A stretch of 64,000 nt of DNA from an uncultured virus (IMG/VR IMGVR_UViG_3300021387_000053) (taxonomy: Duplodnaviria; Heunggongvirae; Uroviricota; Caudoviricetes), in the IMG/VR virus record IMGVR_UViG_3300021387_000053. One strand, 5' to 3'. Under the pieces are notes generated by a model. It made no database searches and was not told where the DNA came from. It saw only the letters and a list, made by a program, of their open reading frames with translations. Of this stretch, positions 1,730 to 63,900 are shown one piece after another. Positions within the stretch are counted from its first letter, which is position 1. Each line of letters begins with the position of its first letter. A program made the position numbers and the translations under genes.

Positions 1730-1993
1730 ATGTTCGAACAGGCTGGCAGAAGCAGAGCGTATAGACGTAGACAAAAGTACCTGAAGGACAAAAGACGCAA
1801 ATAGATCGCCCAGTATCCCGGTTGGTATAACAGGAACTTCTATTTTAACGAGGAGCGGGTGAACCACATCCAATGGCTCGACTACAGCGACACGAAGAGC
1901 TTTTACAAAAAGTGTGCGAGACGGGCATGGAGAAGAAGTAATGACGATCATCCGAAAGGTTGTCTTTACAAAAAGTATTACACTGTGGATTAA
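1730..1993 (+). CDS. Small basic hypothetical protein (87 aa, one in-frame TAG at 1802)
   Basis: AGGGGG SD, ATG 1730, open to TAA 1991-1993 if TAG is read through; absent from the ORF track. Confidence 0.6.
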
Positions 1994-2010
1994 AAGGGTG
2001 TGAAGGAATA

Positions 2011-3261
2011 TTGGAAGCAAACTTCGATGTGTTGGATAAAGAAGGTAAGAGACAGCTTGTCTCCGATATATAGAATAAGAAGTCAGGTGTCTCCGATTAT
2101 GACTGGTCGGAGATTGTAAATAATTATGGACTCCAGATGAGTCCAGACACCTTACGAAAAGCCGGCGTTGGCATCGCATTAGCTGACGAGGCTGGTGTAC
2201 TGAAGTTCAGGGATTCGTCCTCAGAAGAAGTGGTTAAAGCCAAGGATGGAGTTGCAGCAACAATCCCAGAAGCAGACACAAATGGTTTTATAGAACGGCA
2301 GAAGATTCGTGATCTCCGTACAGAGATTCGTGCGGAACTTCGTGCCGAATCTAGAAGCCAATCTTTACAGGAAGTAGTCGCTGAAGCGATTAAGAATTTA
2401 AAGCCGATTAATGTTGAGCGGATAATTCCGTGGAGTCCGGTAGACGAGGAGAGTCGTTCTCTTGTCGTGGCTCTTGGTGATTTCCATTACGGTTCTGAAT
2501 TTACTGTTTGCGGGTTGGATGGAGATTGTTTGAATCTCTATAATCCCGCAACGTTTGAACAGCGGATGGGAAATCTTTTGGTACAGCTTGAGGAGATTAT
2601 CGAGAAAGAAAAGATTAATACCGTTGAAGTTATGTTGGTTGGAGATTTGATTGACGGAATGTTAAGAGATTCTCAGCTTATGAGATTGAAGTACGGGATT
2701 GTTGATTCTACGATTCACCTTAGCGAGTATCTTGCTGTCTGGCTTACAAGGCTGTCGAGTTATGTGAGTGTTGTGAAAGTACATGCGTGTACCGGCAACC
2801 ACTCAGAGATTCGTCCGCTTGGATCAAAAGCAAGACAGTTTGAGGAAGAAAATATGGAGCGGATTATTATGTGGTATCTTCAGGAACGGCTGAAGGTTCA
2901 CCCGAACATTATTATTAATCCGAATACGAATAGACGAGTATTGGCAAAGGTTCAAGGTTATAACTTTTTACTGCTCCACGGTGATGGAGCTTCATATAAG
3001 AATATTTCAGATATCGCAAGAGATACTGTTAATCTATATGGAACGCCGATAGACTTCTTTGTTTGCGGACATCTGCACAATGAAGTGACGATGCAGTCAG
3101 GTATGACGAAGGATGGCAGGAGCTATATTGTTCGTGTTCCTTCTTTATGCGGGGTTGACTGCTATGCTCAGAGCAAAGAACTGGGTGGACAGCCCGGGGC
3201 AGTGGCAATGGTTATTGAGAAAGGATACGGCAGGAAGTGTGTGTATCCGATCATTCTGTAA
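2011..3261 (+). CDS. Calcineurin-like metallophosphoesterase / nuclease (TAG at 2071)
   Basis: GDFHYG, GDLIDG, GNHSE, HGD and GHLH motifs; N-terminal DWSEIV..YGL..PDTLRK segment joins across the TAG from TTG 2011. Confidence 0.8.
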
Positions 3262-3349
3262 AGAGTTATCAGAGACGTAAGTCTCGCCACAGGAGATACC
3301 CGTATCATCTGTGGTTACAAAACAGGAGAGCGTAAGTTCTCCTTTATAT

Positions 3350-3420
3350 TGCAGAAAAGAGCAATGGAAGTTCGTATGCCTCATAAGCATAAGGTGAAGG
3401 TTCGAGTCCTTCTTCTGCAT
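3350..3420 (+). tRNA. tRNA with CAU anticodon (Met or Ile2)
   Basis: Acceptor TGCAGAA/TTCTGCA, anticodon arm TATGC-CTCATAA-GCATA, T arm GAAGG-TTCGAGT-CCTTC. Confidence 0.8.
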
Positions 3421-3426
3421 CTTATA

Positions 3427-3462
3427 AGCCTCGAAGGGAATAAAACCTTCGGGGCTTTTCTT
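3427..3462 (+). terminator. Intrinsic terminator
   Basis: AGCCTCGAAGG/CCTTCGGGGCT hairpin followed by TTTCTT. Confidence 0.65.
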
Positions 3463-3483
3463 ATACCAAAAGGGGGAAAGCAA

Positions 3484-4380
3484 ATGGCAGGAAATAGACA
3501 ATCGCTTGTCGGCAAGTACTGTATCAAATGCGGCAAAGTTCTTCCTCTTGGAGATTTCGCTATGAACAAAGAATGGAAATCCCAGTCTTATCATGACATC
3601 TGGTGTAAAGAGTGTGCAAAGAAATCTCTGAAGACGAAAGAAGATGTCGTAAGGTACTGCTATGAAAACAACAGGCACTGGGAAGATAAGTATTGGGAAG
3701 CTTGTAAAGTAAAAGCGCAGAAGACAATGTCTACGAGTGATCTGATTCTGAAGGCTACTGACGAGACAAAACGTCAGAAGGCAGCGATCCAGATCGTAGC
3801 CCAGACATGGCTTTCGATCATGAATAATGTAGCGTACTACCAGTACGAGGATCATGACGAAGCTTCGACTACTGCGCTGAATAATCCCGAAGCATAGACA
3901 GACTCGCCCGAAACTTCTGAGAAGCCCAAGTGGGATAAGACGTGGAGAGGTTATTATACGGACAGTCAGATCAGAGAATAGAGCGAAGCCTTTGACGGAT
4001 ATGTTAAGGCTTACGGAATTGATATGAATGACTTGAACCTTGTTGACTCGACACGGAAACTTCTGAAGGCTTCATTGAATGCGGATATCGCTGACGATAA
4101 GTTCAGGCGTGGAGAAATTAATATGCAGGAGTGCAAAGCCGCACACGCTCTATATGAGGAATATTCCAAGATGACAACGTTCGCCGCCTGTGTTCAGGCT
4201 AAGAACAAGGTCGGTGTTACTGACGAGGATTCGCTTGGAGTGATTATCGAGAGACTGGAATCGACTGGACTCCTAGGGGACAATGACTTTACTTTTGAGC
4301 CGGATCAGGTTGACATGATTATTTCTGACTTCCGTCATACTATTGCCGCTGTCGGCACATCGATTGGTGGTTATGAGTGA
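3484..4380 (+). CDS. Zn-finger protein upstream of terminase (possible small terminase), 298 aa, TAGs at 3895 and 3979
   Basis: CIKC...WCKEC motifs; two track ORFs join in frame; its TGA overlaps the terminase ATG. Confidence 0.7.
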
Positions 4381-6098
4381 TGGAGCAGTTAAATAAAGAA
4401 ATACCAGCGGCTGAAGCCAGACCCCCTATTGAGGTCTGCGGAATAGAGATCAAGAACTTCCAAGCATGGCGAAAACAAATCTGGTTCTGGCGTACCCATC
4501 TTGATATCTTTATTATGGAATACTTTGGTATCGAGTAGAAGGATACGCAGAGAATCGAAGCTAGAGAGATCGGCAATTGCGCCAGATCTCTTTTAACTCA
4601 GTCTCGTGGTTACGGCAAAACATGGATTACCGCATTGTGTGCTTGCGCTCTGGCTGTCCTATATCCCGGAAGCATGATTGCAGTTGTCTCCGGCACAGCA
4701 CAACAGGCAACACTGGTTCTGAAAAAGATTGATGACGAGTTGATTAAGATCCCGAATATTCTGCGAGAGATCGAAGCCAAGAACCATTCTCCCGTTCAGG
4801 TGAGTAATGAGAAGGGCAGATGCAGATTTAAGAACGGATCTAAGATTGAGTCTTATTCTATGCGGAGTTTCCTTGGTAACCGTGCAAAGATTATTATCGT
4901 CGACGAAGCCCCTGAAGTGAAGAAGAAGGATATCGAGAAAGTCGTTAACCCTGTTCTGAACACGACCCGTATGGTTAGCCATCAGGCGCACTTCGAGGAT
5001 TATGATTCTAAGATGATCAGTATTACTTCCGCATGTTTCAAGTCCAGCTACTATTATACTTCCTTTGTTAATGCTCTGAATAAAATGTCAAAGCTTGACC
5101 GGGAGAGTAAAGACTACTTTGCTTGTGCTTAGGATTATAAGTCAGCTTAGAGACTTGGGCTTGCGAGAGAGAAGTTTATTGAGGAGCAGAGAGATAGTCT
5201 TCCGCAGCAGACATTTGAAATGGAGTACGGAGCTATCTTTAAGGGATCAGAAAAGGGAGCAGTCTTTCCGCATGAGTTGACTGAACCTTGTCGTGTCCTT
5301 GAGAATGTCGAGTTAACTCAGCCCCCGAAGTCTACTTCGGAATATGTGATCAGTGTTGACTTGGCTACCTCTCAGGCAAAGGACGCTGACAACGCAGCTA
5401 TCTGTGTTCTGAAGCTGATCGAGCGTGAGGACGGAACATATCTCACCCGGCTTGTTCAGATTAGAACTTTCCACGGTCGAGGACTTGATAAGTTAGCTGA
5501 GGAAGTCAGGAGACTTCTCGTGTCTTTCCCGAACACGATTAAAGTTGTATTCGACCATCGTGGTCTGGGTGATGCGTTCCCGCTGTTCTTATCGGAGCCG
5601 TGGATTGATCCTGTTACGAGGAAAGAGTATCCGCCACTTGTTGTGGATACGGAACACTCAACGATCAGGAATGCAGTTCCGCTTCTTCGTCCTGTTGTTG
5701 CGGATAATAAACTGAACCAACAGTTGGTTACCGTGACTACTGTGAATCTTGAGCAACGGAAGATCGAATTGCCTGTCTCCAGCAGAAAGCTTGTCGAGGA
5801 CAGACTTATCGAGGAAGACGATGAGGGCAGGACGATTAAGAGCCGCACCCTGACGAAAGAAGAGAAGGCGATCTTCCTTGAAGCCGATGCATTACAAGTG
5901 GAGCTTGGACAGATCGTAGCCAAAGAGACTGTTGCCGGAAACGTTATATACGATACGGCAAAATATAATCAGCATAAAGACCGTTACTCTGCACTTTCTA
6001 TGGGACTGAGATATATCTCAGAACTTGAGAACAAGCGGATACAAAAGATACGCAATGGCGAAGTCGATGACATTGGCATTGTCGGAACTTGGAATTAA
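4380..6098 (+). CDS. terL: Terminase large subunit, 572 aa, TAGs at 4536, 5130, 5148
   Basis: Walker A SRGYGKT, Walker B IIIVDEA, coupling motif ITSA, nuclease ISVDLA and HKDRYSAL in one frame broken only by TAG. Confidence 0.93.
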
Positions 6099-6111
6099 GG
6101 AGGAGAGGCGT

Positions 6112-7803
6112 ATGGGAATCTTTGACATTTTCAGACGGCCTAAAGAAGTACCTTCTGTTGTCCCAGATGGTACGGAATAGAGGATGAACGGTGAAGTTGC
6201 CTTCGACCCGAACGCAGCTCCAACGATTACTTTCAACAATCCTGTTATTCAGGGACGTGGATAGGTAAGGAATAAGATTTCTTATGAGACCATCCTGAGT
6301 AATAAAGAATTATATATTTATGACTAGTTTGCATAGAGTGATTACTACGTTGACGCAGACCCTATATATCGTGGATTAATTAAACAAGTATATACTCCGT
6401 TTAGTATAGCTGACCCTTGGAAACTAATTGGGGCAAACGAAGAAGTAAAGCAGAAGTATGAGAAGTATTACGAGAGGATTCGACTCCGTGAAAAGATGGA
6501 GAGCATCTTCTACCAGTACCATAAGTACGCTAATGTGTATATTTATTAGTTTAGTGATGGTCGTTTGATTACACTTCCCCCTGAATATATCAGGATTGCA
6601 AATATCGCAGTTGACTTCGAGCCTATGCTTGAATTCGACTGCACAAAGCTTCTGGCTAATCTTGGGTTACAGCGCAGTAATTTATCTGCGGAAAATTATC
6701 TGAAAGACAGTGACATTAATCTGAGACTTGCGGGTTATCCCCCGGAGATCGCAGAGGGTGTCAGGAACGGAAAGAAATTCGTTCAACTGAATCCGCATAA
6801 CACATTCACCTTTCAGGACACTAAGGAAGACTGGATGAGGTATGCGATTCCGATGATCGCTGCGTGTCTTCTCCCGCTGAAAAAGAAGTCAATTATCAGT
6901 GACTGGGAAGACAGCAACTTAAAGCTCGGTACTCGAAGCTTCCTGCATGTTAAGTACGGTGACCCTGACGGGGACGTACTCCCGAACAAGGAACAGTAGG
7001 GTAAAGTATTCGAGACATTCAAACGGGCTATGCAGGGATCTGCTCTTGCGGTAACTAACTCATGGGCAACCGCTGAGTTCAAGCAGCCGGACTAGGATGA
7101 GATTTTTCACTTCGATAAGTATAACAGTGTCAACTCACAGATTCTTTCTGCGGGTGGTATCTCTGAGATTATCGTAAGCGGACAGACCACAACCAGTGCG
7201 ACATTTGCGACGGCTCAGGTTTCCATGCAGACGGCTGCAATTCGTATCAGAAAAGCACGAGATAAGTTCTGCGAGATTATGAACAAGATAAATGAGAGAC
7301 TGAACGAGCGTGGCTTCACTGCTATTCCTCACAGTGCACCCGATCAGATCCCTCAGTTTACTTTCCCGCCTGTAGATCTTGCTGGTACAAAGCAGTTCCA
7401 GGAAATCTGCACGAAGCTCTATGACAAAGGAGTCATCTCCAAAAAGACTCTGCTTCAGACTCATGGCTTTGACATTGATCAGGAAGTGGAGCGCAGGAAG
7501 GAAGAGAAGCGAACCGGGGTTGACGAAGTATTGGTTGATCCCAGTTTAGTTGAGACTCCTTCCGATAATACGACTGAGTCGGTAAATAATGAGCCAGAAA
7601 ACAGGGAAGGCTATGAGGCTTATCGTCGTAACGGTAAGACTTATTACCGCAAATCCCGTACTAAAAATAGTGACTCAGATGAGGAGAATCCAAGAGGCAG
7701 ACCGACTGAAGACTATAACGAGCGCACAAGCGATCCCGCTAAGTCTCAGACCGGGAGACAGCCCAAGCCTTCGAACCCGTCAGGTTCTGAAGCGCAGACA
7801 TAA
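6112..7803 (+). CDS. Portal protein, 563 aa, seven TAGs (6178, 6262, 6325, 6334, 6547, 6997, 7093)
   Basis: Follows terL; GGAGGAG SD; continuous frame; FDKYNSVNSQILSAGGIS and LYDKGVIS portal-like motifs. Confidence 0.85.
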
Positions 7804-7910
7804 GATATTTTTAAAGGCGAGTTATACTCCCTTAGAAGTATAAATTCCATCTTACCGAAAAATAAGACCGCCTATTATTTTAGGTGAGAAGGAAAGGAAT
7901 GTGACAGCAA

Positions 7911-9320
7911 ATGGATAGTCGGAATAGTATGTTTGTTCTGGCTTCTGATGTTTTGCTGGCCGAACAGCAGACTAATAACCAATTCATGTCAGTGAAGATG
8001 CGTATGTAGTCTACGAATGGGAACAGAAATGAACAGGGTGTTACAGAAGCATTTATTGACGAGATTGTTGCGAACCCTGAGAAATATGACTGTACTCCTC
8101 TGTACGCAGATAAGATGAATCTTTAGGCCGGAAGGTACGAGCAGCTTGGACATAAGTTTAATCGTATTACACATACTTTCGGGACTGACCAGATTGGGAG
8201 TTTCGCTCTCAATTCTTTTGAAAAGGTAAAGGATGAGTTTGGCACATGTTTATACGGAGAAGTTAGAATTCCGAAAAGAGAATCCGATATCTGTGCAGCA
8301 GTGAAGGAAATGTATGACAAAGGAATTTTATGCTTTTCCTTTGAGTTGACGTATGATCCCGATCACGTAATTTATGACGGCAAAGTTATGTATGTAGATG
8401 CCGCAGAAACAAATACGTTAAACGGGATGGCAATCGTCTCTGTACCCGCATATCCTGAAGCGGTTGCTCTTGATTAGGTTGCGGAAGCAGAAGCGGAGCT
8501 TACGGACAATACTGAACCGACTCAAATTATCAGCGAAACAGTAGAGAAGTCTGGGACAGATACAAACGAGGTGAACGAAGAAATGGACAAAGTGAATGAA
8601 GCGAATGCTTCTACTGTCGAAGAAGTAATGATAGACACCGCAAGTGAACAGACTGTTGAGCGTGTATCTGATTTTGAAGACGAACCCAATGTGGCTGCTG
8701 AAGCTAATGCTGCCGTTGACGAGAAAGGCGAAGAGGTAAAGCCTGAAGACAATACGGAAGAGCAGAAGAAAGAAGAAGCTTCCGCAGAGGAAGCCCCCGC
8801 TAATGAGGACGAGAAGAAAGAAGAGACTCCCGAAGAAAATAAGGAAGAAGCCAAGGCTGAAGAAGTCAGTGACAGACCTCCTGAAATGAATCGGGTTATC
8901 GAAACAGTCGAGGAAACTTACGTGACTCGTATTACTCGGATGCAGGAAACTATTGCGGAACAAGAGTCTATGATCGCAAGTCTTCAGGAAAAGGTCAAAG
9001 ACTATGATGCAATTCAAGCCGAACTGAATCAATATAAAGAAGCCGCCCAGAAGATGGAGCATGATCAGAAGCTGAATAAGGCTACTGTTTATGCGGAAAC
9101 TATGGGGCTGAATGTTGAAGATGAAGAGGTTAAATCGGCGATTGCTTCTCTGGATTATGAGAAGCTTGCAGATCTCAGTGTAGCAGTGGCACAGGCTGCC
9201 AAGAAAGCTACAGAAGAATCTGAAAATAAAGATCAGTCCAATCCCGTTGGTCAAATCTTTTCCAGTTATGCTGGGATTATTGATGATATGACTTTCGGTG
9301 GAATTATTTCTGGACGGTAA
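7911..9320 (+). CDS. Prohead protease with acidic coiled-coil scaffold, 469 aa, TAGs at 8007, 8124, 8475
   Basis: LGH, FSFEL and GMAIVSVPAY protease-like motifs; Glu-rich C-terminal half. Confidence 0.8.
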
Positions 9321-9343
9321 ATAAAAGAATGAGGTGAAACACT

Positions 9344-9787
9344 ATGGCTGGATTTATGAAAAGATAGGATGGTCACGTATATGATGGTCATCATGTCGCA
9401 GCTGAAACGCTTGAGAATGGCGTATTCGTAAAGATCAACGATGAGAATAAGGTTGCAAAGCTTGAAGCCGGAGACAACACTGACGCAGCTAAGTGCGTTA
9501 TGCGTATGGAGAACAAGTATTATCAGTGGGGTCTGTATTTCCTCGCTATGAATGTTCTTGTTAATAATGCTGAGAATCTCTGGTTCACGGAGAATGACTG
9601 GCAAGTTGATGACACTCTGGAATATGATGAGACCAAGTATGCCGTTGCCGCTGGCAAGTACGTGAAGATGCGTCAGCCTGTCAAGGGCGATATGGTTTAC
9701 ATGAGTGTCGACAAGGCCCTGTACGACACCGTCGAAGCCGGCGATAAGATGAAGCCCGTCGCTGGCGGTACTGTTGCCAAGGCTTAA
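9344..9787 (+). CDS. Head decoration / minor capsid protein, 147 aa, TAG at 9365
   Basis: GAGGTG SD; lies between scaffold and major capsid; strongly biased codon use. Confidence 0.7.
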
Positions 9788-9819
9788 TAATTAACAAAAC
9801 AATATCGAGGTGAAAACAT

Positions 9820-10845
9820 ATGTCTGATATTATTATCCGTCGTGACGATCCTGCGGTAAAGATTATGGTCGCAGAGACCCGCAAGGAACGTATTGACTCT
9901 GGTGATTTAGATAAGCTGAATAAATAGCTTCAGGTGATTGCGGAAGATCCCAATCCCATGAATATGCATGCACTGGCTCAGCTGGTTGGTTTCTCTGTGG
10001 ACGAACTGGTTAAGCCCATGAGCGATTTCCTGAATCGCATTGCTGACTATAAAGTTCTGGGTGTGAACGACACTCCTAAATTTACTGTTGGTCTGGAAGG
10101 CATTCAGGCTTATATCCAGGCTATGGGTTCTACGACTCCTCGTAGCCGTATCGCTCACAAGACCATCACTCTTGACTCCCTGACTGTGTCCGCTCGTCCT
10201 TTCATGACGATTGCCGACATTAATCGTGGTGTGGTTAAGATGGCTGATCTTGTGTCTGATGCCGCCGTGAAGATGGAGAACGCCAAGCTCGGTTATATCC
10301 GTGAAGTTCTCGAAGCCAACTATAACAACGCTGGCACTCTGACCGCAGGTTCTCCCTTCTATGCTGAAGGCACTGGCGTTCTGAAGTCTGGTATCGATCC
10401 TCTGATTCGTCACTGGATGCGTTATGGTGGTGTGGGTATCGTTGGTGATATTGAGACCACTCAGCAGCTTGCTGAACTGACTGGCTTCAAGACTGTCGAG
10501 AATCCTGCTACCCAGCAGTTCGCTGACAACATTATCCTTGAACAGAACCAGAACGGCTACATTGGTCGTTATCTTGGTGCTGACGTGGCTACGATGATGA
10601 ACCCCTATAAGGACGGCAGCATCTCTGAGACTGTCCTTGATCCCAAGGTTATGTTCATCTTCCCGACCGCTGCTTCTGCTGATATGCGTCCGCTCAAGGT
10701 CTTTACCAAGGGTCCGGTGCAGTCTATGGAAGCTCGTCACATCGACGATCTCACTTGGGAAATCCGTCTGGATCAGGAATTTGGTTGCGGTTTCGTGTAT
10801 GGCGAACAGCCCTATATGTCCGTGTACAAGGATCTGTCCAACTAA
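9820..10845 (+). CDS. Major capsid protein, 341 aa, TAG at 9925
   Basis: Position, size, strong codon bias, downstream terminator. Confidence 0.85.
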
Positions 10846-10856
10846 GTTAATACTAC

Positions 10857-10895
10857 GGGGACTGCTGAGTTTCCCTCGGCAGTCCTCTCTTCTTT
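10857..10895 (+). terminator. Intrinsic terminator after capsid gene
   Basis: GGGGACTGCTGAG/CTCGGCAGTCCTC hairpin plus TCTTCTTT. Confidence 0.7.
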
Positions 10896-10910
10896 AGAGG
10901 AGTGAAGGAA

Positions 10911-11333
10911 ATGAATAGTGATAAAATTCGTGTGCGGAATAACACAACTTTTGATATTGCTGTCAAAATGCTTGATGAAAAAGAACGACTGATTAAGGCG
11001 GGATCTTTTCTTCCGATGACTAAGGACGAGATTGATTATCTGTCTTCTATTTGTTCAGTTTTTTCTTCCAATCATCTAACTATTGAAAATCCCGAAGAAG
11101 CCAAAGAGATTCTTGAGGGCAGCGGTATTGTTATGGAAGAGAATCCTGTGTTCATGGATGACGATGATATCAGGAAGCATCTCCGGGCTTCTGCTGCTAA
11201 TGTCAAGAAGTGGCTCGACGAAATCGAGTTTGACCGGGTTCTGTTTAGTAGGATTGAACGGATCGCTACCGAAATGGATCTTCCTGCAAGCAAGATGAAA
11301 GTCGTTGATGCGAAACTCCACGGCGGAGAATAA
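10911..11333 (+). CDS. Hypothetical head-associated protein
   Basis: ORF with SD directly after capsid gene. Confidence 0.7.
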   Translation: MNSDKIRVRNNTTFDIAVKMLDEKERLIKAGSFLPMTKDEIDYLSSICSVFSSNHLTIENPEEAKEILEGSGIVMEENPVFMDDDDIRKHLRASAANVKKWLDEIEFDRVLFSRIERIATEMDLPASKMKVVDAKLHGGE

Positions 11334-11347
11334 AGGAGCGAAAGAGA

Positions 11348-11773
11348 ATGACAGATCTGATTAAGTAGACAAAGAAACTTGTCAACCGAATCGAATGGCA
11401 GGAAGTTCCAGAAGATTTAGACCTGGATGATATGTGCGACTTTATTCTGGATGCGATTGAGCATTTCTATGTCATGGCTGGGAAATCTGCGGAATATTCT
11501 GAAGATCTTGTTGTTCTCGATGAAGATGGGAAACCTCAGTATTTCAAAGCAGACTTTATGCTTGACGAACAGCGGTATATTCTTGCGACCGCTCAGTTAT
11601 ATTTCCTTGATAAAGTCAGGGGAGATCTGAGTGAGACAGAGAGCTATACTACAGATGCTATGAGCGTTACGAACGGAGACAAACCGTTCAAGAATGTAAC
11701 TGAAATGCTGAATCTCGCACGCTCTGAGCAGATCCAGATGTGGCATAAGATGCCTAGGTACAACATGCTGTAA
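11348..11773 (+). CDS. Putative head-tail adaptor, TAG at 11366
   Basis: AAGGAG SD, ATG 11348; SYTTDAMSVTN motif; synteny. Confidence 0.65.
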
Positions 11774-11792
11774 GGGAAGAGGCGGTAGGAAA

Positions 11793-12122
11793 ATGGAAGA
11801 GAAAAAGAACTTGAGTGTACATATTGTATACCGCAATGAAAAGCTGATGCCTGTTGCAGACTATATGTACAGTCTTGATGAATATACGCAAATGATCAGA
11901 AATGATATGATGCGGATGATTACTGATGTTGAAGATCTTGTCTATGAAGCGACGGGCGGTCTGCCGAAAGAGAAATGGGCAGATGAGACTTGGGCTAGAT
12001 TTGCCAAGATCAAACACAAGCTTTTGGATAAAGCAGGAGAAGTTGGCCGGCTTCCGCAGTGTATTGTATACGGGGGTGTTGGCGATGGGACGTATCTTGA
12101 ACAAGAGGAAAAGCGAAGTTGA
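11793..12122 (+). CDS. Hypothetical protein
   Basis: 109-aa ORF with TGA stop. Confidence 0.65.
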   Translation: MEEKKNLSVHIVYRNEKLMPVADYMYSLDEYTQMIRNDMMRMITDVEDLVYEATGGLPKEKWADETWARFAKIKHKLLDKAGEVGRLPQCIVYGGVGDGTYLEQEEKRS

Positions 12123-12894
12123 GTCTGCGGATTCTTTCGACGATGAAGCCTTACGTCCAAATCCTCAAATAAAAACTAATCGTAGATTCAGAGATCCTGC
12201 TACTCTGTACTCGGATTGGCATAACGAGCTTTATGAAGATAAGCCTTATGTAAATTGGTGGTTCGATATCGTGCATGACTGGTATAACAAGCCTGAAGAA
12301 CCGTATCGGATCAGAGCGCAGCAGACTCCTATCGACTGGAAGTCTAAGATTGGTAACTCAGATATGAGTACGAACTTTAAGGTTGAACATAATGTCGAGA
12401 TTTATAAAGGGGATTATGCAATACGGGAAGATGGTGCACTGTATCTCCTGAACTGGAATGTACAGAACCATGCGAACAACCAAGCGACTCAGTCCGTTGA
12501 GTGTAATGACTATATTACTTTTATGCGAGAGAGAAGAACAAGGGTTGACGGTAATGCGTTCATTTTGCCCGAAAGAGAAGACGGCAAGGAATATTCTGAA
12601 GATGGGAAATATGAGATTATCGTAAAAGATATTCCCGCTTCGCATTCTCTGTATACAGGTCGTCCTGATTATTCTGTGAGTTCAGGTATTCCGGGTGTAA
12701 CGTCTAATGACTTGATGAGTGTGTTCGTTCAGTGGAATAGCGAAACACAAAAGATTCGAGTAGATGATATATTCCGTATAGGGTTCTTCACTTACCATGT
12801 TGTTGACGTAGTAACCTCTGAAGTAAGGCTTGATAAAAAACATGGAGTATAGGATCTCTATGCTAAACGTATTCCTGGAGGTGTGATTGCTTAA
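12085..12894 (+). CDS. Putative head closure / neck protein, TAG at 12850
   Basis: Read-through adds DLYAKRIPGGVIA and gives a TAATG overlap with the next gene. Confidence 0.7.
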
Positions 12895-13472
12895 TGGGTA
12901 TGAGTTTAAATTAGAATCAAGCGCAAAAAGATTAGCAATCCGCTGCAGAAATTGCGATGGGCATTTTAAAAGATAGATTCTACGATAGTATGACTGCTGA
13001 GATGGGGAATATCGTTGCAGAAGTTGCTCGAGAAAAACATGATGGTGATATGTTTTCAGGGCCTCTTACTTCAGCGGTTGATAATTCTAAATACATGTCT
13101 TCCGTAGATACTAATGGAAGTATGGTCTCTTTCCCAGTTAAAGTTGAATTTCAAACTGAACAACAGCAGGAAATGTGGGACGTTGCTACGATTGGTAACC
13201 TAAGAACTCTTTGGGATGGTCATTCACACACGCATGCCAGACCTGGCGCAATAGTCTGGGGAAAAGGAATGCAAGAACAGCATGAGAGTAATGCTAAGAC
13301 AGAAAGAGAAATTCCGCAATGGGACTATTCTGGTATAGGTAAAGAATATGCTGAGGGAAAAATAAAAGACAATTCAGAAAAGATTGCTTTAGGAAGCGAT
13401 CACGGAATTGCCGCAGATGTTATTAAGTCTACTATAGAAAGCTAGTTAGTTTTAACTGTATCTGTTTCGTAA
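12894..13472 (+). CDS. Putative neck / tail completion protein, TAGs at 12912, 12933, 13443
   Basis: Coupled start; frame closed by TAA 13470-13472. Confidence 0.65.
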
Positions 13473-13485
13473 GAGGTGATAACGG

Positions 13486-13971
13486 ATGTACGTTGAGAAG
13501 AAGAAGACATGGAAAGATAATTGGAACGACGTTGTTCGTTATCTCATTTTTACTGATGCTAAAATGCAAGAGCTTATGTGCTTACCAAAAGGAATAACAA
13601 TTCCGCAGTTTTGTGAAAAGTATTTTATTCGTGACGGGGACGGTGCTGAATTATTAACCGATGAGAAGGTTCGTGTTATTTATAATGACAGTCCCGGAAC
13701 TCCTACAAAGAATAGATTTGTAAAGAATCGATATAAAGAATTCGATATCTATGTTAAAGATGAATATGTTCATCCTTCATGGGATTATCAGTTTTCCACT
13801 GATTGGATGAAATGTCGTTATGATGCTATTGCAGAAAGATTAAAAGTTCTTTTATGTAATGGCGATGTATTTGGATTAAAGTTTTTCTTTGAAGATGAAT
13901 ACGATTAGTGGACTAAAACCGTAGGGTATAAAAGATACCATGTCGTATTTTCTTATCAAACAACTGTTTAA
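13486..13971 (+). CDS. Putative tail terminator protein, TAG at 13906
   Basis: Read-through adds WTKTVGYKRYHVVFSYQTTV; lies directly before the tail tube gene. Confidence 0.7.
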
Positions 13972-14053
13972 TATATCTTGAGTATAAAGATGTAGGCGGC
14001 ATCTTAATACGTCGATATAAACTACAACTTCTCAAATAAAGGGAGGAATAAAT

Positions 14054-14902
14054 ATGGGTGCAATTTATTTAGATATTGCAAAGGGCTATGTTATCGATAC
14101 TCCTAACATTGACTTTGAACGTTGCGATGGCACGGTCTTCTCCTATGATAAGGTGAACACTGCTTCCTCTAACTTCACTCTGAATGGTTAGGATATTACT
14201 GGTGGTCAGTATCGTCTGCCCCTGGCTCACATCGACACCGACTCTACTGTTGAAATCAGCTTCGAATCTTCTGAGTTCACTCTGGACATTTTCGAACTGG
14301 CTAATGCTGAAAAGGTTTCCGTTGGTGATATCGGTATGCTGGAGAGCAAGCGTTTCGAAGTCAAGGAAGGTCTGAAGATTACTCTGCCTTACGAAGTGCA
14401 GGCTAACTCCGTTTCCATCCGTGGTCTGGAAGAAGCTACCACTGCTGCCGAAGGTAAGTTTGCTGTGGCGATTACTGCTGCTGGGGCTGAAACCGATGGC
14501 AAGACCGAGATTACTCTGAACGCTGCTGATGCTACTGTCGGTGACGAGATCCGTGTGAGCTACCATCGCCGGATTGTGGACGCTCATCGTGTTATCGTCC
14601 GCAATACTTCTACCACTGCTAAGGGTGCTCTTGCTATGCACTTCCCGGTGTATTCCGACGGTGGTTCTTGCGAAGACGCTAACCTGAAGGGCTGGCTGCA
14701 TATCTACTACTATCGTGTCCGTGTGACTCAGACCCCTGGTATCAATGCCAGCTACAAGAGCGCACAGACCTTCGGTCTCACATTCTCCGTTATTGACCCT
14801 CAGCGTGCTGACGGTCGTACCTATGAATGGAGCTACGAACCTCTTGATCCCGATGGCAATATCGTTGTTAAGAGCGACGCTACCGAAGTTGACTGGGGTT
14901 AA
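14054..14902 (+). CDS. Major tail (tube) protein, 282 aa, TAG at 14189
   Basis: GGAGG SD, capsid-like codon bias, downstream terminator, position before chaperones and tape measure. Confidence 0.8.
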
Positions 14903-14915
14903 TCAGTCTAATCTG

Positions 14916-14946
14916 GGGAGACGGATTTATTCCGTCTCCCGTCTTT
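14916..14946 (+). terminator. Intrinsic terminator
   Basis: GGGAGACGGA/TCCGTCTCCC hairpin plus GTCTTT. Confidence 0.7.
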
Positions 14947-14974
14947 ATAAAGTATAAAGGAAGAAGGAATCGAA

Positions 14975-15238
14975 ATGGATAATGATGCTATGTTTAAAAG
15001 GGCGAAGGAATTGGTGTGCGAATACTTTAACAGTCATGCAGAGAAGACAGATAATTTCGCAATCACCGCAAAGGATGTATACATTGTGTGGTTTTCGAAG
15101 ACATTACAGAATTGGAAAGCCTTACTGAGTACAGTTGTTCCTGACGGGATGTATTATGAGATTACTCACAATGGAGATAAACATGAAACTTATCTGGATG
15201 CATACAAGAAGTTTCAGAATGTATGTTATCCTGACTAA
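14975..15238 (+). CDS. DUF6275-like small phage protein
   Basis: VYIVWFSKTLQNWKALLST..DGMYYEITHNGDK.ETYLDAYKK motif. Confidence 0.75.
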   Translation: MDNDAMFKRAKELVCEYFNSHAEKTDNFAITAKDVYIVWFSKTLQNWKALLSTVVPDGMYYEITHNGDKHETYLDAYKKFQNVCYPD

Positions 15239-15301
15239 ATAAATGTACCCTATGTGAGAAGCATAGGGCTTTTCTTTTTATACTAAAGGAGTTGAAGGAT
15301 A

Positions 15302-15817
15302 GTGGCAACGAGGAAAAAGAGTTAGGCAGTACCTGATGCGGAACAGGCAGTAGTTGAGATGCCGTCGAGCGAACAGGAACATAAAGAGCTTCCAGATCCG
15401 AAACAAAAGAAGAAAGAGATTCCTTCCGCAGAGATTGAAAAGAAGGAATTACCGAAGACAGGACATCCTGAAAATATGGTTCTGTTTGGCAATACACCGA
15501 TTGAGATATTCCCAACAAAGCTTGAATACTTCAGGAATAAGACAGCGAACTTTTATCGTCTCCTTCAATTATACCCAGTAGGAGAAGTACTTGATTTGAC
15601 AGCGGAGCAGCTTGGAGATAAAGACGGAGATAAGGCAACCTTTGATTGGCTGATTGCTGTTACGGATAATGAGGAACTTGTTAAGGCAAACTACAATCTC
15701 ATTAATCAGGACACAATCGATAAAATGGTTGATATTTTTGTTCGTGTTAATAAGATCAAAGAGAAGGAAGAAAAATTAAAAAACCTGATGGCCCCCAAAA
15801 ATCCGGGGGCGAAATAA
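15302..15817 (+). CDS. Tail assembly chaperone (gpG-like), TAG at 15323
   Basis: GTG start after AAGGA; ends just past a slippery A AAA AAC. Confidence 0.7.
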
Positions 15818-16128: not shown

Positions 16129-16129
16129 A

Positions 16130-16783: not shown

Positions 16784-16821
16784 AATAATATAGCAGAAAG
16801 GATATGGAGGTGATTTGTTAC

Positions 16822-42568: not shown

Positions 42569-42577
42569 GCACAGAAT

Positions 42578-47584: not shown

Positions 47585-47596
47585 GCGGGTGAGGAT

Positions 47597-48403: not shown

Positions 48404-48425
48404 CATCTGAGAGGAGAGGATACCG

Positions 48426-49155: not shown

Positions 49156-49262
49156 GTTAAAGAATCGGAGAGGTGTCTCGTCAGAGATCCTCTCCCATAC
49201 AGAGGACGTTGCTTCTGCGGATGACTAGAAATTTTTAAATAAAGTATACGGGAGTGAGTAAT

Positions 49263-50355: not shown

Positions 50356-51641
50356 TTCTATTTATCTCCTTGATAAATGTCAAGTACTTTACCCGCAACA
50401 GCTTTGATTACAGGAACAACGACTGTGTTCCCAAGCAGATCATAACCAAGGTTTCTATCGATATCGAACTTAAAATCCTCTGGGTATCCGAACAGGCGGA
50501 GTCCTTCTCTGAGACTCAGCTTTCTGATCCCGTCTCCGTCTCTCACGTACAGATGCTCCATATCCATAGCGACCAGAGTAGGAGAGATAGAATCAGGATC
50601 GAGTACTTTGCTCACCTGAAAGCTCATCTTACCCGCAACAATATTATAGCCAACAGGCAGCTCTTCATCCGGGACTCGCAAGAGTCCCACTTTCTTTTTA
50701 GGGTGTTCCTTCCTGACATACTTCTTCTGAGCCAGATCTTCCAACATCTCTTCCAAGTCATCCGCATCAAAGAAAGTCCTGATCATATTCAGAGTCAGGG
50801 GCATACCGTCCATCCAGTCGATCCCGTAAATCTCTGCCCACTTCTTCTTCCGTCTTTCCGTCATCATCAGGTTCAGAAGAGTCCTCTGGCGTTCAGAGAT
50901 TTCTCCCTTCAGTCCAATATCCCAACTGTGGATATTATTATCTCCGCCCCGCTTGTCTTTAATCGACATCCCAGGAAGTTCTTCGAGTTTATAGTGGGCG
51001 AGGAGTTTATTGATGAACGGGCTAGTCTCTGTCTCAAGTCCCTGTTCAAGGATATCCCGTACATACTTTTCTTTATGCGGAAACCTATCCATGTCAGGAG
51101 TCTCTTTAAGAGTTCCGATAATATAGATACGCTTTCTGTCTTGCGGAACTCCAAAGTCCTTGGCGTTGAGAACCTTCCAGTTCACCTTGTATCCCAGACT
51201 CACAAGCCGATCCAGAATAATCGTCAGTGTCCGTCCGATCTTGTCCTTCGGATTCTCCTTGTCATGGTTGACAAGGCCCTCTACATTCTCAAGGATAAAC
51301 CCGAACGGTTTCTTTTCAGCGAGAATACGTTCGACTTCAAAGAACAGAGTACCTCTGGTATCGTAGAATCCAAGTCTTTTACCCGCAGCGGAGAAAGCCT
51401 GACACGGAAACCCCCCAAGCAGAATATCAAACTGCGGAATCTCATCCGTAGAAATCTTAGTAATATCTCCGTGAATTTCTTCGTCGGGGTGGTTCTGTTT
51501 CAGAATCTCAATCGCATGGGGTTTGATCTCGCTCGTGAATACACACTGGGTCTTGATCCCTCTCTCTTCACAAGCCAGTTCCAGACCTTTACGGATTCCC
51601 CCGATGCCAGCGAACAAGTCAATAAATCTTATCTCACTCAT
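50352..51641 (-). CDS. C5 cytosine DNA methyltransferase, M.NlaIV-like (standard-code end 50358; read-through end 50352)
   Basis: FIDLFAGIG, GFPCQ, ENVEG, QDRKRIY, LGNTVVVPV; target-recognition region DKRGG.NNIHSWDI..WMDGMPLT. Confidence 0.9.
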
Positions 51642-58995: not shown

Positions 58996-59559
58996 TCATT
59001 CTTCATCCTCTTTTTCAAGTGCGGAAATGAACTCTTCATTCGTCGGCAACTCGTCAAGACTCCAAGACTTGGCAAGCTTAACGCCGTGGTAGGGGAGTTC
59101 TTCATGTTCCCGCAGTTCATAAAACCTATCCTCTGGAGTCAGCGGTTCTTTATTAAATCCCTGATAGACTTCAAATGTCCGCTTATCAAAATCGATCACA
59201 TATGCCCACTCACAGAACAGGGAGTCGGCAGCAAACCTAAGCTGATTAGAAATACGGAAGCAGTTGCCCCGCTGAATAATCGGAAGAATATCTGCGCTCG
59301 TATCACGATCAAACTCAGGGAAGATTTCTCTTAAAGCGTTGACTCTGTCCCCGGTAAACGAGAACAACGTGCGGTATTCGTTGTCGTTCATCTCACGGAC
59401 ATTGACCAAGTTGTTGAGAAAGATCTTCTCATCCATCTGATCCCGCAGAAACTCAAGTACTGCAATGCCCTGTCCACTGGGATATCCATCCCACTGCCCA
59501 TACTGGGCAACCCAATAACGTCCTTTATATTGGACAGCAATCTAATGTCTCGTTCCCAT
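58996..59559 (-). CDS. Conserved phage hypothetical protein, TAG at 59542-59544
   Basis: MGTRH*IAV...AQYGQWDGYPSGQG...DSLFCEWAYVIDFD. Confidence 0.8.
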
Positions 59560-60303
59560 ATACTTAAACACATCCCCAAACGATATTTTTCTTCTTAATT
59601 TTCGCTTCTCTGCCAGAGTGAGACAGGCAGCGTTACCGTGACTGTAACCGGCTGGACATGAGGCATAGTGTATACATTCTCTGCACTCCACAAACAAGGC
59701 GATTCCCCCTTTGTTGTACTTGTGGCATCTTCTACTAAAGATACTTTGACGTTATCCGCACATTCTTCAAGAAGCTGTTGAATATAAGTGCAGATTGTTT
59801 GCTCATTTGCTTCCTCGCTGTAGAAATCCATTGACAGCCTGACATTCTATACAGCGGAGACTGTACGCTTCTCTTTCTTCTGATTCATTTCTTATCCCCC
59901 GTCTTATGTTCATAATCAAAACACATCAGAACCTCAACACATGCTTCATCAGGGTCTTTCTCGCACGGGTGAGGAGAGTCTTTATCATGCCACTTGCAAT
60001 GGTCACACAGACTGACTTTCTTTTCATAATCAGGGATCGTTACCTCTTTGATCTTGTAGTCGTAATCCCATCCGATATTGTGTTCGTTCAACCGCAAGTC
60101 CTGTTCAATTTCTTCTGCGGACAAGATATGGTGAGTGTTCAGTTCAAGCATTACCACTACTTCCATTGTTCTTCTCCTTTATGAGTCGTTTGTTAAACCG
60201 ATCAATTGCTCTGTAATATTCTGCGTCTGTCAAAAGGTTTTCCATCCAAAGGAACAGCTACATGTCCCCGCAATCAATAAACCTCATCCGATCTCTTCCT
60301 TTC

Positions 60304-60840: not shown

Positions 60841-60876
60841 TTCAGATCTCCTTTCTGATCTTAGCCATATACAATC

Positions 60877-61099
60877 AATGCGGGTGAGGATTTGCACCTC
60901 ACATGTCAAAGCACTTCGGGCTGTTCGCTTCGCACATTTCTATGGCTATACTCTCGTTATAGCTATGCCGCCTCTGACTCCCCTTTAAGCGTCTACTTTA
61001 ACCGTGACCTGCGCCCCTGTGATCAGGTGTACTTAATTGAGAGACACGTCCTTATCTACTCTCCGCAGGAATGATGGTAATCTATTCCGCCACCGCATT
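60877..61099 (-). ncRNA. tRNA-mimic RNA B with 85-nt D-loop insertion
   Basis: Same acceptor and D-arm halves as RNA A; GTGAGG-TGCAAAT-CCTCAC T arm. Confidence 0.65.
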
Positions 61100-61928
61100 T
61101 AATCGTCTGTATCACCATCCGCACAAAACCAATGACCGGGATGACGTTGATCATATAAACGACAGTAACGATCATCACACGGGGGTATACACTCCTCGCC
61201 GTACTTACAATCTTTACAACGTACAATCACTGGCTCTGTTGACTCCGTCCAGAACGGATCGTCCGGCGGATAATCTCTCATGTCATAATACAAATCTTGT
61301 GCCATAACAACTCAATCTCCTGGGGGCTGATTCATAATCCAGCCTTTTCTGGCATAAACTCGCTTGCCACACTTCGGGCAACGTTCTCGCTGATTGTTTT
61401 CGAGATCGGACTGGAAACGTTCGCTTGCCGGGTTATACCAACCAGTCTCATCTCCACAATACGGGCAAACCGTATAACCAAACCCGTAATGGAAGACATC
61501 CTTCCAACGTTTCGGCTCTTTCTTCTTGTCTGCTTTAGCTTTCAGCGGACACTCGTCAGGGCTGCCGTCTCGCCAGTAATACCAGTTAACAAACATGTGT
61601 GTCCCAGTCTTAGCAAGCTCCCCACACTCCACATAATTACCAAACACATCCATCACATGCTTACAACCATAACAATTCGGTTCACTCATTTAGCCAACTC
61701 CGCCTTCACTGTCTCAACCATATCAACAAACAACATTGTTTCTTGGAATCCGCCGATAGGAACACCGCTGTTTAACTTATCGTATTTCTCAAGTGCTTCA
61801 TCGACATACTCAGCACCAAGGTTTTTCTCAACCCAATCGCCAAGCTCTTTCCGAAGATCGTACTTCTTATGCCTTGCAAGAAATTTCTTAAACCACATAC
61901 GCTGATTCTCCTAAACTGAATATAAGAA

Positions 61929-62075
61929 TGTGTGGGTTAGGATTTGCACCTAACAGGATAGCCTTTTCGCAGATGTAGGGTCGCATGACTTTCGTCCTTC
62001 TTTTCAAGCGGTAACGTTAACTCCGCTTTCGTGGCTATCTCCCTCTAGCCCGTTTACCTCTTCCGTCACCACACA
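61929..62075 (-). ncRNA. tRNA-mimic RNA C
   Basis: TGTGTGG/CCACACA acceptor, GAAGAGGTAAA D loop, GATAGCC/GGCTATC stem, GTTAGG-TGCAAAT-CCTAAC T arm. Confidence 0.65.
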
Positions 62076-62180
62076 ATTTGGTATTTGCCTTTACCCACGC
62101 ATGAGTGTTTGCTGCTGCCGATACCTCGACGGAAGTGGTTTTCATCCTTCCTGCTCTCCGAAGAAAGCAGCCGTTATTCT

Positions 62181-62288
62181 TATGCGGATCAGGATTTGCA
62201 CCTGATAGGAGACGGAATCTCAAGTCCCCGTCGGTAACCCGCCATCTCAACTGTTTCTGTTTTTGTTTACCTCTTCCAACACCGCATA
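62181..62288 (-). ncRNA. tRNA-mimic RNA D
   Basis: TATGCGG/CCGCATA acceptor, TTG-GAAGAGGTAAA-CAA D arm, GAGATGG/CCGTCTC stem, ATCAGG-TGCAAAT-CCTGAT T arm. Confidence 0.65.
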
Positions 62289-63564
62289 TATTTATCTATC
62301 CGTTCAGGAATATTCTGTCAGAGTTTTTCTAAGCAAATACATGCACAAGTAATGAGCTTGCTCAATCTCTTCTCGTTCCTGATCCGTCATCATTGACTGC
62401 CATCGTGCGTACCTCTCGCACTTCAGAACCTCAAGCGCATCTTCTAATTGTTGTCTAGTTGGCGTTTCGCCGTATACGTATTTCTCTTCGAAGATCAACA
62501 TTGCACAATTTCGAAATGTGTACTGTAATGTGAACCGCACATCTCGCATGTCCCTTCTCCATATTCCAACTTCAATGGGTGACCGCAGTTCTTACATTTG
62601 ATTTCCTTGACTTCAACAATACTGGCTTGCAATGCATAAATCTTATCGCCAACTTTTATCGTACTGATAAAGTCATCAACGTACTTTTCGCCTTCCGGCG
62701 TTTTAATATACGGCATTAAGCTCTACCTCTTTTTGCAATGTTTTGTACCATATTTCCAAAGCTTTATCTGCTTCGTCGTTGATACGCTGCTCACTGATGT
62801 CGAGACTGCCACCCCATGTTGCCCTGATAATATTGTCGATGCACCAGTCAGTGAGCCTGATCATAACGCAAAGGTTTTCATACCGCTTTGAGTTCTCATT
62901 GTGGTCGCAGTCTTCATCTGGTTCGACCTCGCCAACTACATTGCTCACAAGTTTAATTACTTCCTGAGCGGTAAGTTTATCTCTTGTCATGCGGATTCTC
63001 CTCATCGAATGCCAAGCAAATAATCCAGTATCCCAGACCCAGAAGGATTCCCATGATCGCAGTTGCCACATAAGGGTTCTCCTGTATTACTCTCACAAGC
63101 TCCATTGTCCTCACCATCCTTCTTTATGTAAGCGAGGATTGCCATTGTTTCATCTTGAGAGCCAGCCACACGCTTGAGAGAAACGATCTCATATATATTG
63201 TTTTGAGTATCCAAGCAAATAACGGGAACATTTCCTCGTACATCCGTAAGACCTTTGATCATGTTTAATTTATTCATTGTCCTCACACCCTCATGTACCC
63301 AGTCTCTCTTCGCAACGTGTTCGCTGCCTGTCGCATCAGATTACTCATACAAGATCTGCCATCCGCTTTACCTTCTGCGGAATAACGACATTCTCTGCAA
63401 TCCCGTTCATCGTTTTTACCAGAGCAAATCTCCAACATCTCAATCAGATCTCTTGTGTCCATCTCTTTACCTCACTCTTCGAAGAAAGGACTGGGTATGT
63501 AGTACACACTGATGCAAGCCAGTCCAAAGATTAACGTAACAATACACAATGTCTCAATCATCTG

Positions 63565-63900
63565 TTATATCGTTTCCCTCATCTTTGCACCGCATCCTGG
63601 GCAGTGATCGAACTCCAGTTCTTTCTCAAAGTTCTTTCCGTGCCATCCACATTTACTGCACTCGTAATGTCCGTGGAATTCAGGGGGCATCATCCCTTCC
63701 ATCTTTACCCAACAGGCTTTCTTAATCCCAAGGATTTCATCCGTCATATCACCTTCAACAACAAATTCAGTGTCGGGATTAGTGACATAAATATTGGTAT
63801 TGTCATATTGCGGGTTATAGAAAAAGTACAAGATTTGATCCGTATTAATCTACGTAGGAGTACTCTGATTCCTCTCTTTAACCTGAATAAACCTAGGCAT
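63565..63900 (-). CDS. Hypothetical protein with C-terminal Zn ribbon, TAG at 63850-63852
   Basis: MPRFIQV...PT*INTDQI; YECSKCG...HCPGCGAKM. Confidence 0.7.

Follow-up and report, generated by a model that had tools for sequence, protein, structure and literature searches.

The locus raises the question of whether TAG is a stop codon in this phage and, if it is not, which amino acid it specifies. The sequence analyzed, hereafter the window, is a 64,000-nucleotide stretch from an uncultured virus (IMG/VR record IMGVR_UViG_3300021387_000053), and it very probably represents ∼64 kb of the ∼119-kb genome of a temperate, siphovirus-like phage that infects ruminant-gut Clostridia and uses TAG as a leucine codon. 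The late genes are where the codon is found in frame, and the features on which the argument relies are listed below.

1140..1519, plus strand: tRNA cluster with Leu(UAA), a long-armed tRNA(UAU), and Asn(GUU)
1730..49571, plus strand: late block (packaging, head, tail, fibers, lysis) with in-frame TAGs and a TAG-free island inside
3350-3420: tRNA(CAU)
4377..6098, plus strand: large terminase terL, three TAGs (Pfam Terminase_6N)
6112..7803, plus strand: portal-like protein, seven TAGs
7911..9320, plus strand: head protease/scaffold candidate, a label from the first-pass annotation for which no family match was found; TAGs at 8007, 8124, and 8475
9820..10845, plus strand: capsid candidate (phrog_4088)
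16804..28068, plus strand: tape measure of 3754 aa, 15 TAGs (Pfam PhageMin_Tail)
28298..29407, plus strand: distal-tail candidate, TAGs at 28880 and 29027
29420..34387, plus strand: tail hub of 1655 aa, 10 TAGs (Pfam Prophage_tail)
34407..38188, plus strand: two fiber/baseplate proteins with five and three TAGs (Pfam Gp10_C in the first)
38875..43591, no single strand: TAG-free island with a 780-aa metallophosphatase-like gene, small ORFs, and an integrase (42521-43591)
47597..48403, plus strand: endolysin, three TAGs (Pfam NlpC/P60 and SH3_3)
49254..49571, plus strand: holin (Pfam Holin_LLH)
50352..51641, minus strand: DNA methyltransferase with one TAG (50360), its penultimate codon, so that the gene ends correctly under the host code too
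58996..59697, minus strand: gene of the minus-strand block (phrog_30528)

Most minus-strand genes of the window had no functional assignment in PHROGs, and among GenBank phage records no relative of the portal was found beyond one 23% match.

The first-pass annotation had described the late genes as single frames broken only by TAG and closed by TAA or TGA. These frames do appear on read-through (tape measure, tail hub, portal, and terL), and the start/stop overlaps that it placed at 12894, 46922, 50355, and 54313 are all present. Each codon that it had cited, namely the TAGs at 36485, 38714, 47492, and 43806, the CTT at 44862, and the CTC at 36410, lies exactly where it was reported. Under table 11 the longest ORF in the window is 834 aa. 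The coding-density comparison that the annotation had called for showed greedy ORF cover rising from 0.85 to 0.93 overall when TAG is read through, with 0.97 in the late block, and strand switches falling from 47 to 29; taking TGA or TAA as sense instead neither lengthened the longest ORF in the window nor reduced its strand switches. TAG occurs in 26 of 31 hand-set late ORFs, 73 times in total, and a mechanical ORF call of the late block returned 78 TAGs in 13,863 codons with TAA (27) and TGA (5) as stops. TAG accounts for 7.5% of the Leu and TAG codons of this block, and about 75 leucines of the virion and lysis genes would be spelled this way. In-frame TAG within intact late genes is thereby confirmed as an observation, and intact conserved genes with in-frame stops, together with a gain in coding density, are features of stop-recoded phages.

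The meaning of the codon was derived from a tblastn comparison of the window ORFs with 55 distant related genomes, using TAG columns covered by at least eight genomes (n = 43). The log-odds over these columns were +27 bits for leucine, −92 for isoleucine, −93 for methionine, and −168 for glutamine. Leucine was the commonest residue in 20 of the 43 columns and glutamine in none, and the pooled residues included 576 leucines and nine glutamines out of 1126, which upholds the earlier proposal that TAG stands for leucine rather than glutamine. The other 23 columns were led by a different residue (Ala in four; Tyr, Asp, Arg, and Val in three each; Ile in two; and others). Support per column was 0.63 bits for TAG as leucine versus 1.3 to 1.9 bits for true Leu codons, for which leucine is commonest in 50 to 60% of their own columns in the same comparison. 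None of the 61 sense codons departs from table 11. TCA columns read as serine, which rules out genetic code 22 (TAG = Leu, TCA = stop), and the glutamine values above are at odds with code 15 (TAG = Gln). Code 16 (TAG = Leu, the rest standard), that of chlorophycean mitochondria, has the same codon with the same new meaning and describes the phage as a codon table only, not as a lineage. A recoding of ATA, suspected from the long-armed tRNA(UAU), was rejected on 75 ATA columns that read isoleucine; leucine was commonest in 12% of ATA columns versus 18% for ATT and ATC.

Individual columns follow the same trend with exceptions. The first-pass annotation had cited family motifs that favor leucine, and this held at seven sites where leucine dominates, 4536 (41/42), 5130 (44/46), 6325 (49/52), 6334 (48/52), 8475 (37/46), 13906 (21/26), and 30947 (13/16), as well as at 59544; it did not hold cleanly at 7093 (Thr 27, Leu 18) and 8007 (Phe 27, Leu 11). 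The third terL TAG, at 5148, faces Ala 33, Val 12, and Ile 1. In the portal, leucine also dominates at 6547 and 6997, and the columns at 6178 and 6262 are variable. The TAG at 9925 in the capsid candidate faces leucine in 14 and TAG in eight relatives, with Val, Met, and Ile among the rest. In the distal-tail candidate, leucine is found in 10 of 16 at 28880 and in five at 29027, where isoleucine has nine. Tail hub columns include 29645 (Leu 11/16), 30848 (Leu 7/14), and 31616 (Arg 11/16). The endolysin column at 47756, with few homologues, holds Trp 5 and Ala 1, and the two holin columns read Leu 8/8 (49302) and Tyr 7, Glu 1 (49392).

Two sets of 120 database homologues agree with leucine at TAG. 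For the portal, leucine is found at four TAGs in 93/104, 96/104, 103/119, and 117/120 proteins. For the gene at 58996-59697, TAG 59544 faces leucine in 116 of 120, and the true start of this gene is probably the Met five codons before that TAG. Both in-window paralogue matches put forward in the first-pass annotation are real, with TAG 36485 opposite CTT 44862 and TAG 38714 opposite CTC 36410. Among 21 swaps of TAG in close relatives, eight are to Leu codons. In-frame TAGs of their own are present in 38 of the 55 distant relatives, mostly at leucine columns, and leucine is the top residue opposite these TAGs in 34 of the 38.

A tRNA search found no tRNA(CUA) in the 64-kb window. However, a 119-kb IMG/VR genome that is 96 to 97% identical (G002), used here in place of the full genome of the window, has such a gene beside the packaging genes, 753 bases upstream of the first base of the window. 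The gene was found in both L001 and L002/G002 with 54.8 bits against the Rfam tRNA model. This tRNA is compact, at 76 nt, with A73 and a variable region of 7 nt, and it therefore lacks the long variable arm of class II tRNA-Leu. The identity elements of tRNA-Leu are the discriminator A73 and a Leu-type D arm. Compared with 108 phage tRNAs, nine of them Leu, the D arm is nearest to Leu in nine of 11 unique suppressors, and the same nine of 11 result was obtained against 39 tRNAs of a candidate host. By full-length identity to host tRNAs, the compact suppressor matches Leu tRNAs no better than those for Gly, Thr, or Tyr, and the Leu-likeness of the compact forms is limited to the D arm and A73. 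An alignment of nine suppressors made with MAFFT for a covariance model was set aside because its anticodon-stem columns were misaligned.

Related elements carry fuller versions of the gene. A long-armed tRNA(CUA) is present in relatives, with a length of 92 nt for L014 and 86 nt for G022, the 86-nt form being encoded by a prophage that is syntenic and lies within a 300-kb Eubacteriales contig. Apart from the other tRNA(CUA) of that genome, the nearest tRNAs to the prophage gene there are Leu (identity 0.63-0.72), and among host tRNAs, tRNA-Leu(CAA) comes nearest to the class II tRNA(CUA) from a related prophage. A compact tRNA(CAA) of 76 nt whose T arm is of the Leu type also occurs in one relative. 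The origin suggested in the first-pass annotation, a single CAA to CUA change, is plausible on these sequences. ARAGORN labels any tRNA with a CUA anticodon as tRNA-Pyl, which is characterized by a very short variable loop, a small D loop without GG, a long anticodon stem, and accompanying pyl genes. This identity was rejected by Rfam alignment, which showed a normal cloverleaf with a D-loop GG, a 5-bp anticodon stem, and a 7-nt variable region; Pfam scans returned no pyl families, nor did they return a release-factor or synthetase gene.

The distribution of TAG among genes is uneven. The TAG-free island has no TAG in 1225 codons, TAG is also missing from the large replication genes of G002, and the sole TAG of a second integrase is at codon 14, upstream of a likely start. 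TAGs stand at the ends of early genes at 50360 and 54378/54381. Avoidance of the recoded codon by integrase and early genes is a further feature of stop-recoded phages. Within the late genes, 13 of 73 TAGs fall in the first 25 codons versus 58 of 927 Leu codons (p = 0.001), an enrichment near gene starts that suggests that these codons act as gates. Metatranscriptome RNA contigs cover the region, a coverage that is not proof of transcription.

Four other readings were weighed. It is vanishingly improbable that the TAGs arose from faulty assembly or sequencing or that the genes are decaying pseudogenes: TAGs occur at identical places in four independent assemblies (L001-L004), which argues that they are not miscalls, and the read-through frames contain no TAA or TGA across thousands of codons. 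Weaker support comes from four other runs, where the 40 differences listed, of 228, all lie outside the three terL TAGs. For glutamine (NCBI table 15), the assignment in crAss-like and other recoded gut phages, three points can be cited: the parts of the literature searched give no other TAG meaning for phages, one of the 21 close-relative swaps is to CAG (26359), and a few database proteins have Gln at the TAG places. Those proteins, however, are the closest relatives only (80-95% identity), they carry Gln exactly where the related DNA has TAG, and the entries look like table-15 translations. With the −168 bits and the absence of any Gln-led column, we consider this reading extremely improbable.

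A TAG read as Ile, Met, or Val, likewise hydrophobic, or ambiguously as several residues, would account for the looser fit of leucine at TAG columns than at true Leu codons, for the columns that favor Val, Ile, Phe, or Ala, and for a compact tRNA whose full-length identity is not Leu-specific. Against this, leucine leads isoleucine by 119 bits and methionine by 120 bits, and related elements have an unmistakable long-armed Leu-type tRNA(CUA); we regard such a reading as unlikely. That the host itself reads TAG as leucine, with the phage following it, is very unlikely. The candidate host genome G022 does have two tRNA(CUA) genes, but one of them sits within a related prophage, and prfA (RF1) is intact and over the family cut-off in all four MAGs that hold relatives and serve as candidate hosts. 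These host links rest on MAG binning, save for one integrated prophage. The avoidance of TAG by the phage integrase and replication genes also fits a host that stops at TAG.

Leucine therefore remains the preferred meaning, and it has precedents. Phages with a code unlike that of the host are reported to show only TAG-to-Gln and TGA-to-Trp (bioRxiv 10.1101/2021.08.26.457843). TAG-to-Leu was likewise not found for phages in the parts of the literature searched, where only the same two changes appeared; the codon meaning is already known from mitochondria and eukaryotes. Recoded gut phages with suppressor tRNAs, as described in the available portions of the reports, include crAss-like, Lak, Garnet, Topaz, and Agate phages and phAss-1 (bioRxiv 10.1101/2021.08.26.457843, PMC9523058, PMC10607447). 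The present phage resembles them, as far as those portions go, in its in-frame TAGs in late/lytic genes, a phage tRNA(CUA) (here in the 96 to 97% identical genomes), a standard-code host (here candidate hosts), and integrase genes that avoid the recoded codon. It differs in that TAG means glutamine there and leucine here, with a tRNA body that is Leu-like and not Gln-like. UAG-to-Leu is known from a rhizarian nucleus. It is also reported for some ciliates (PMC11687900). In organelles and eukaryotic nuclei the whole genome is recoded, whereas here the recoding sets a virus apart from its host and extends to only part of the viral genes. Laboratory amber suppressors such as E. coli supP/leuX are derived from tRNA-Leu, and since the anticodon is not read by LeuRS, a tRNA-Leu with a CUA anticodon inserts leucine at UAG. 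Suppressors of this type are single mutants of full-size tRNAs and suppress only partially; the phage tRNA occurs naturally and, in this lineage, is without the long variable arm.

Taken together, our current hypothesis is that the phage tRNA(CUA) represents a leucine tRNA reduced in size, which would be charged by the host LeuRS. Once made, it would outcompete host RF1 at TAG. Given such competition and early genes that avoid TAG, the early and lysogeny genes would be readable by the host code, and the virion and lysis genes would give full-length protein only with the tRNA present. Extending this to the relatives, we lean toward a whole family of phages and prophages, ∼60-120 kb in size and belonging to ruminant and gut Clostridia, with TAG as leucine, a code absent from the phage papers searched. 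Its leucine tRNA may have shrunk from a long-armed to a 76-nt form that is still charged, the TAGs at the 5′ ends of late genes may be a translational switch that keeps back virion and lysis proteins as long as the tRNA is not expressed, and databases may hold its proteins mistranslated with Gln. For phages that recode TAG, table 15 is the only choice in phage annotation pipelines, and proteins are consequently written with Gln where leucine would belong (database examples with Gln at TAG places are P0001 and P0121-P0123). The phage is common in ruminant guts, being present in runs of 15 studies, which makes metaproteomic tests feasible. If true, this would be a second natural meaning of TAG in phages, and more than the Gln and Trp synthetases would be usable for recoding. 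LeuRS, being blind to the anticodon, would be an easy route to a change of phage code, and the compact Leu-type suppressor would be a natural test of which parts of the tRNA LeuRS needs.

Under the standard bacterial code (table 11), the window is broken into fragmented short open reading frames (ORFs), the longest of 834 aa. When TAG is read through, long unbroken frames appear that are terminated solely by TAA or TGA, and the recognizable products include the following.

4377-6098: large terminase, 3 TAGs
16804-28068: tape measure, 3754 aa, 15 TAGs
29420-34387: tail hub, 1655 aa, 10 TAGs
portal-like protein: 7 TAGs
fibre proteins: single frames once TAG is read through
endolysin: NlpC/P60 and SH3
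holin: Holin_LLH

By mechanical ORF calling, the late block (packaging, head, tail, fibre, and lysis genes) comprises 13,863 codons with 78 TAGs, and its stops are TAA (27) and TGA (5). On a hand-set list of 31 late ORFs, three of which have start coordinates that are not at start codons, 73 TAGs are spread over 26 ORFs. Coding was also compared under alternative stop readings. Only TAG as sense raised the greedy ORF cover, from 0.85 to 0.93 overall with 0.97 in the late block, and reduced strand switches (47 before, 29 after); with TGA or TAA made a sense codon instead, cover did not rise and switches did not fall. The coordinates quoted in the first-pass annotation were all correct on checking, and its two in-window paralogue matches are genuine, with X opposite L in both. 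The observation of in-frame TAG recoding is confirmed.

The residue at TAG was examined by comparison with loci encoding portal relatives (47 viral and 12 bacterial-genome) and with extra tail-hub DNA from 16 of these genomes. All ORFs of the window, translated with X for TAG, were searched by tblastn against these loci, and the codon opposite each window codon was scored with one count per genome, excluding the near-identical relatives L001-L004. The first pass required 10 or more genomes per column; its 4253 columns included 22 TAG columns, for which the log-odds were +34 bits for L, -55 for M, and -62 for I, and all 61 sense codons matched table 11. The extended pass, with a minimum of 8 genomes per column, covered 8642 columns, and its 43 TAG columns returned +27 bits for L, -92 for I, -93 for M, -104 for V, and -168 for Q. 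These values favour Leu over Gln and support the first-pass interpretation of TAG as leucine. L was the commonest residue in 20 of these 43 TAG columns, and no column was led by Q; of the 1126 pooled residues, 576 were L and 9 were Q. For comparison, L is commonest in 50-60% of columns at true Leu codons, and columns at Gln codons are led by Q in 24-33% of cases and by L in 1-3%. The Leu fit per column is looser for TAG (0.63 bits) than for true Leu codons (1.3-1.9 bits), and a residue other than L leads in 23 of the 43 columns, including those listed here.

TAG 5148: A leads (33)
TAG 6262: D leads (36)
TAG 8124: R 21 versus L 17
TAG 31616: R leads (11)
TAG 49392: Y leads (7)

Two independent protein-database searches agree with the codon comparison in pointing to Leu. 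Among 120 portal homologues, L stands opposite four of the TAGs in 93/104, 96/104, 103/119, and 117/120 sequences, and the columns of the other three TAGs are mixed in one case (T 78, L 28) and variable in two. The minus-strand gene at 58996-59697 has L opposite its TAG in 116 of 120 homologues. Gln at TAG places was limited to proteins of the closest relatives (P0001 and P0121-P0123), and P0001 carries six Q residues exactly opposite the TAGs of the related locus L003. These public entries look like translations made under table 15, in which TAG is read as Gln.

TAG positions are identical across four independent assemblies, and the phage was found in gut runs from cattle, sheep, and goats in 15 studies. 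Across segments sharing 60% identity or more, close relatives differ from the window at 21 TAG sites, of which 8 are Leu codons (TTG, CTG, CTT, TTA) and one is CAG, with the others scattered. Among the 55 distant relatives, 38 also use in-frame TAG in the aligned genes, and in 34 of these 38 the columns opposite their TAGs are led most often by L (for example, 28/32 columns in L032, 12/12 in L062, and 16/20 in L052). This code thus belongs to the phage family and not to a single genome. Four relatives (L034, L035, L036, and L044) have a 76-nt tRNA(CUA), yet contain no in-frame TAG in 1,749 to 9,370 aligned codons; the suppressor tRNA may precede, or exist without, recoding of the aligned genes.

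The four tRNAs of the window (Leu-UAA, a long-armed UAU, Asn-GUU, and CAU) do not include the anticodon CUA. A candidate suppressor was found in G002, a 119,416-bp IMG/VR genome (CheckV 100% complete) that is 96-97% identical to the window and circularly permuted relative to it. Both G002 and L001 encode a tRNA(CUA) positioned 753 bases upstream of the site matching window base 1; it measures 75 nt to the discriminator, scores 54.8 bits against the Rfam tRNA model, and combines A73 with a Leu-kind D arm and a variable region of 7 nt. The D arm was nearest to tRNA-Leu for 9 of 11 unique family tRNA(CUA) genes when compared with 108 other phage tRNAs (9 Leu), a result repeated against 39 tRNAs of a candidate host. 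The compact forms, which lack a long variable arm, showed no greater full-length similarity to Leu tRNAs than to those for Gly, Thr, or Tyr, and the compact body by itself does not settle the residue. The tie to leucine comes instead from tRNAs of relatives. A prophage syntenic with G002 across late and replication genes (205.5-293.9 kb of a 300-kb Eubacteriales contig) encodes an 86-nt long-armed tRNA(CUA) immediately after the DNA polymerase III alpha gene, and its nearest tRNAs in the same genome, other tRNA(CUA) aside, are Leu (0.63-0.72 identity, CAA first). The tRNA(CUA) of L014 measures 92 nt, and a 76-nt tRNA in L044 combines the Leu anticodon CAA with a Leu-type T arm.

The candidate-host MAG G022, to which the prophage contig belongs, has another long-armed tRNA(CUA) of 86 nt on a separate contig (C35:100736-100821, L136); it shares 85% identity with the prophage copy and may derive from another mobile element. 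About 0.8 kb upstream of the G002 tRNA(CUA), on the same strand, a 138-aa ORF (L069:9997-10413, minus strand) contains 5 TAGs, has a tail resembling a helix-turn-helix, and could be a regulator that itself depends on the suppressor.

Other tRNAs lie near the window start. The tRNA(UAU) at 1239-1326 (L001 5193-5280, L002 5010-5098) has A73 and a variable arm of ~19 nt, a shape that fits tRNAs for Leu, Ser, or Tyr and does not fit tRNA-Ile. Three related phages conserve this tRNA, with a constant variable-arm stem and a varying loop. Despite this tRNA, ATA codons stand opposite Ile (75 columns). The tRNA-Leu(UAA) at 1140-1221 was not called by ARAGORN in L001 or L002, and the window/G002 match is interrupted at 1174/1175, where G002 has ~207 different bases. 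Immediately beside the cluster, 4-1083 encodes a protein matching Pfam DUF7788 and DUF2828.

TAG is unevenly distributed. Large replication genes of G002 have none (polymerase, 830 aa; NrdD, 642 aa; primase-helicase, 619 aa), and neither does an island at 38875-43591 (1225 codons). The 16 TAGs of the window's minus-strand block are mostly within 22 codons of the start of over-long ORF calls or at the extreme end. TAG occupies the first 25 codons more often (13/73) than ordinary Leu codons do (58/927; Fisher p = 0.001). Located within the tail-fibre region, the island contains an integrase and a 780-aa metallophosphatase-like gene, along with small ORFs on the minus strand; G002 has different DNA in place of window 39239-42236. 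The window has a second integrase at 51946-53094, and a third integrase-like gene is present in G002. On the minus strand, TAG is the penultimate codon of a methyltransferase gene (50360), and tandem TAGs (54378 and 54381) precede another gene's TGA by 22 codons. These may act as stops early in infection and later be read through to give short C-terminal extensions.

The gene prfA is intact in all four MAGs containing relatives, and Pfam scans of 30 window and 58 G002 proteins detected no release factor or synthetase. LeuRS does not recognize the anticodon. We infer that the phage tRNA(CUA) would be charged by host LeuRS and would compete with RF1 at TAG, which could then serve as a gate on the late genes. 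Such gating was earlier proposed for TAG-to-Gln phages in 10.1101/2021.08.26.457843, and the window phage would share it.

For phages, full-text searches together with PMC11210395, PMC10607447, and 10.1101/2021.08.26.457843 yielded only TAG-to-Gln, TGA-to-Trp, and TGA-to-Gly recodings, and the last of these papers reports only TAG-to-Gln and TGA-to-Trp where phage and host codes differ. In full-text literature available without subscription, UAG-to-Leu was found only in organelles and protists, and GenBank phage records hold no relative of the portal beyond one 23% match. Taken together, the sequence comparisons support a stop-recoded phage with a probable suppressor tRNA, a known kind, in which the new point is that TAG would mean leucine; the public protein records of its closest relatives carry Gln at these places, apparently through table-15 translation.
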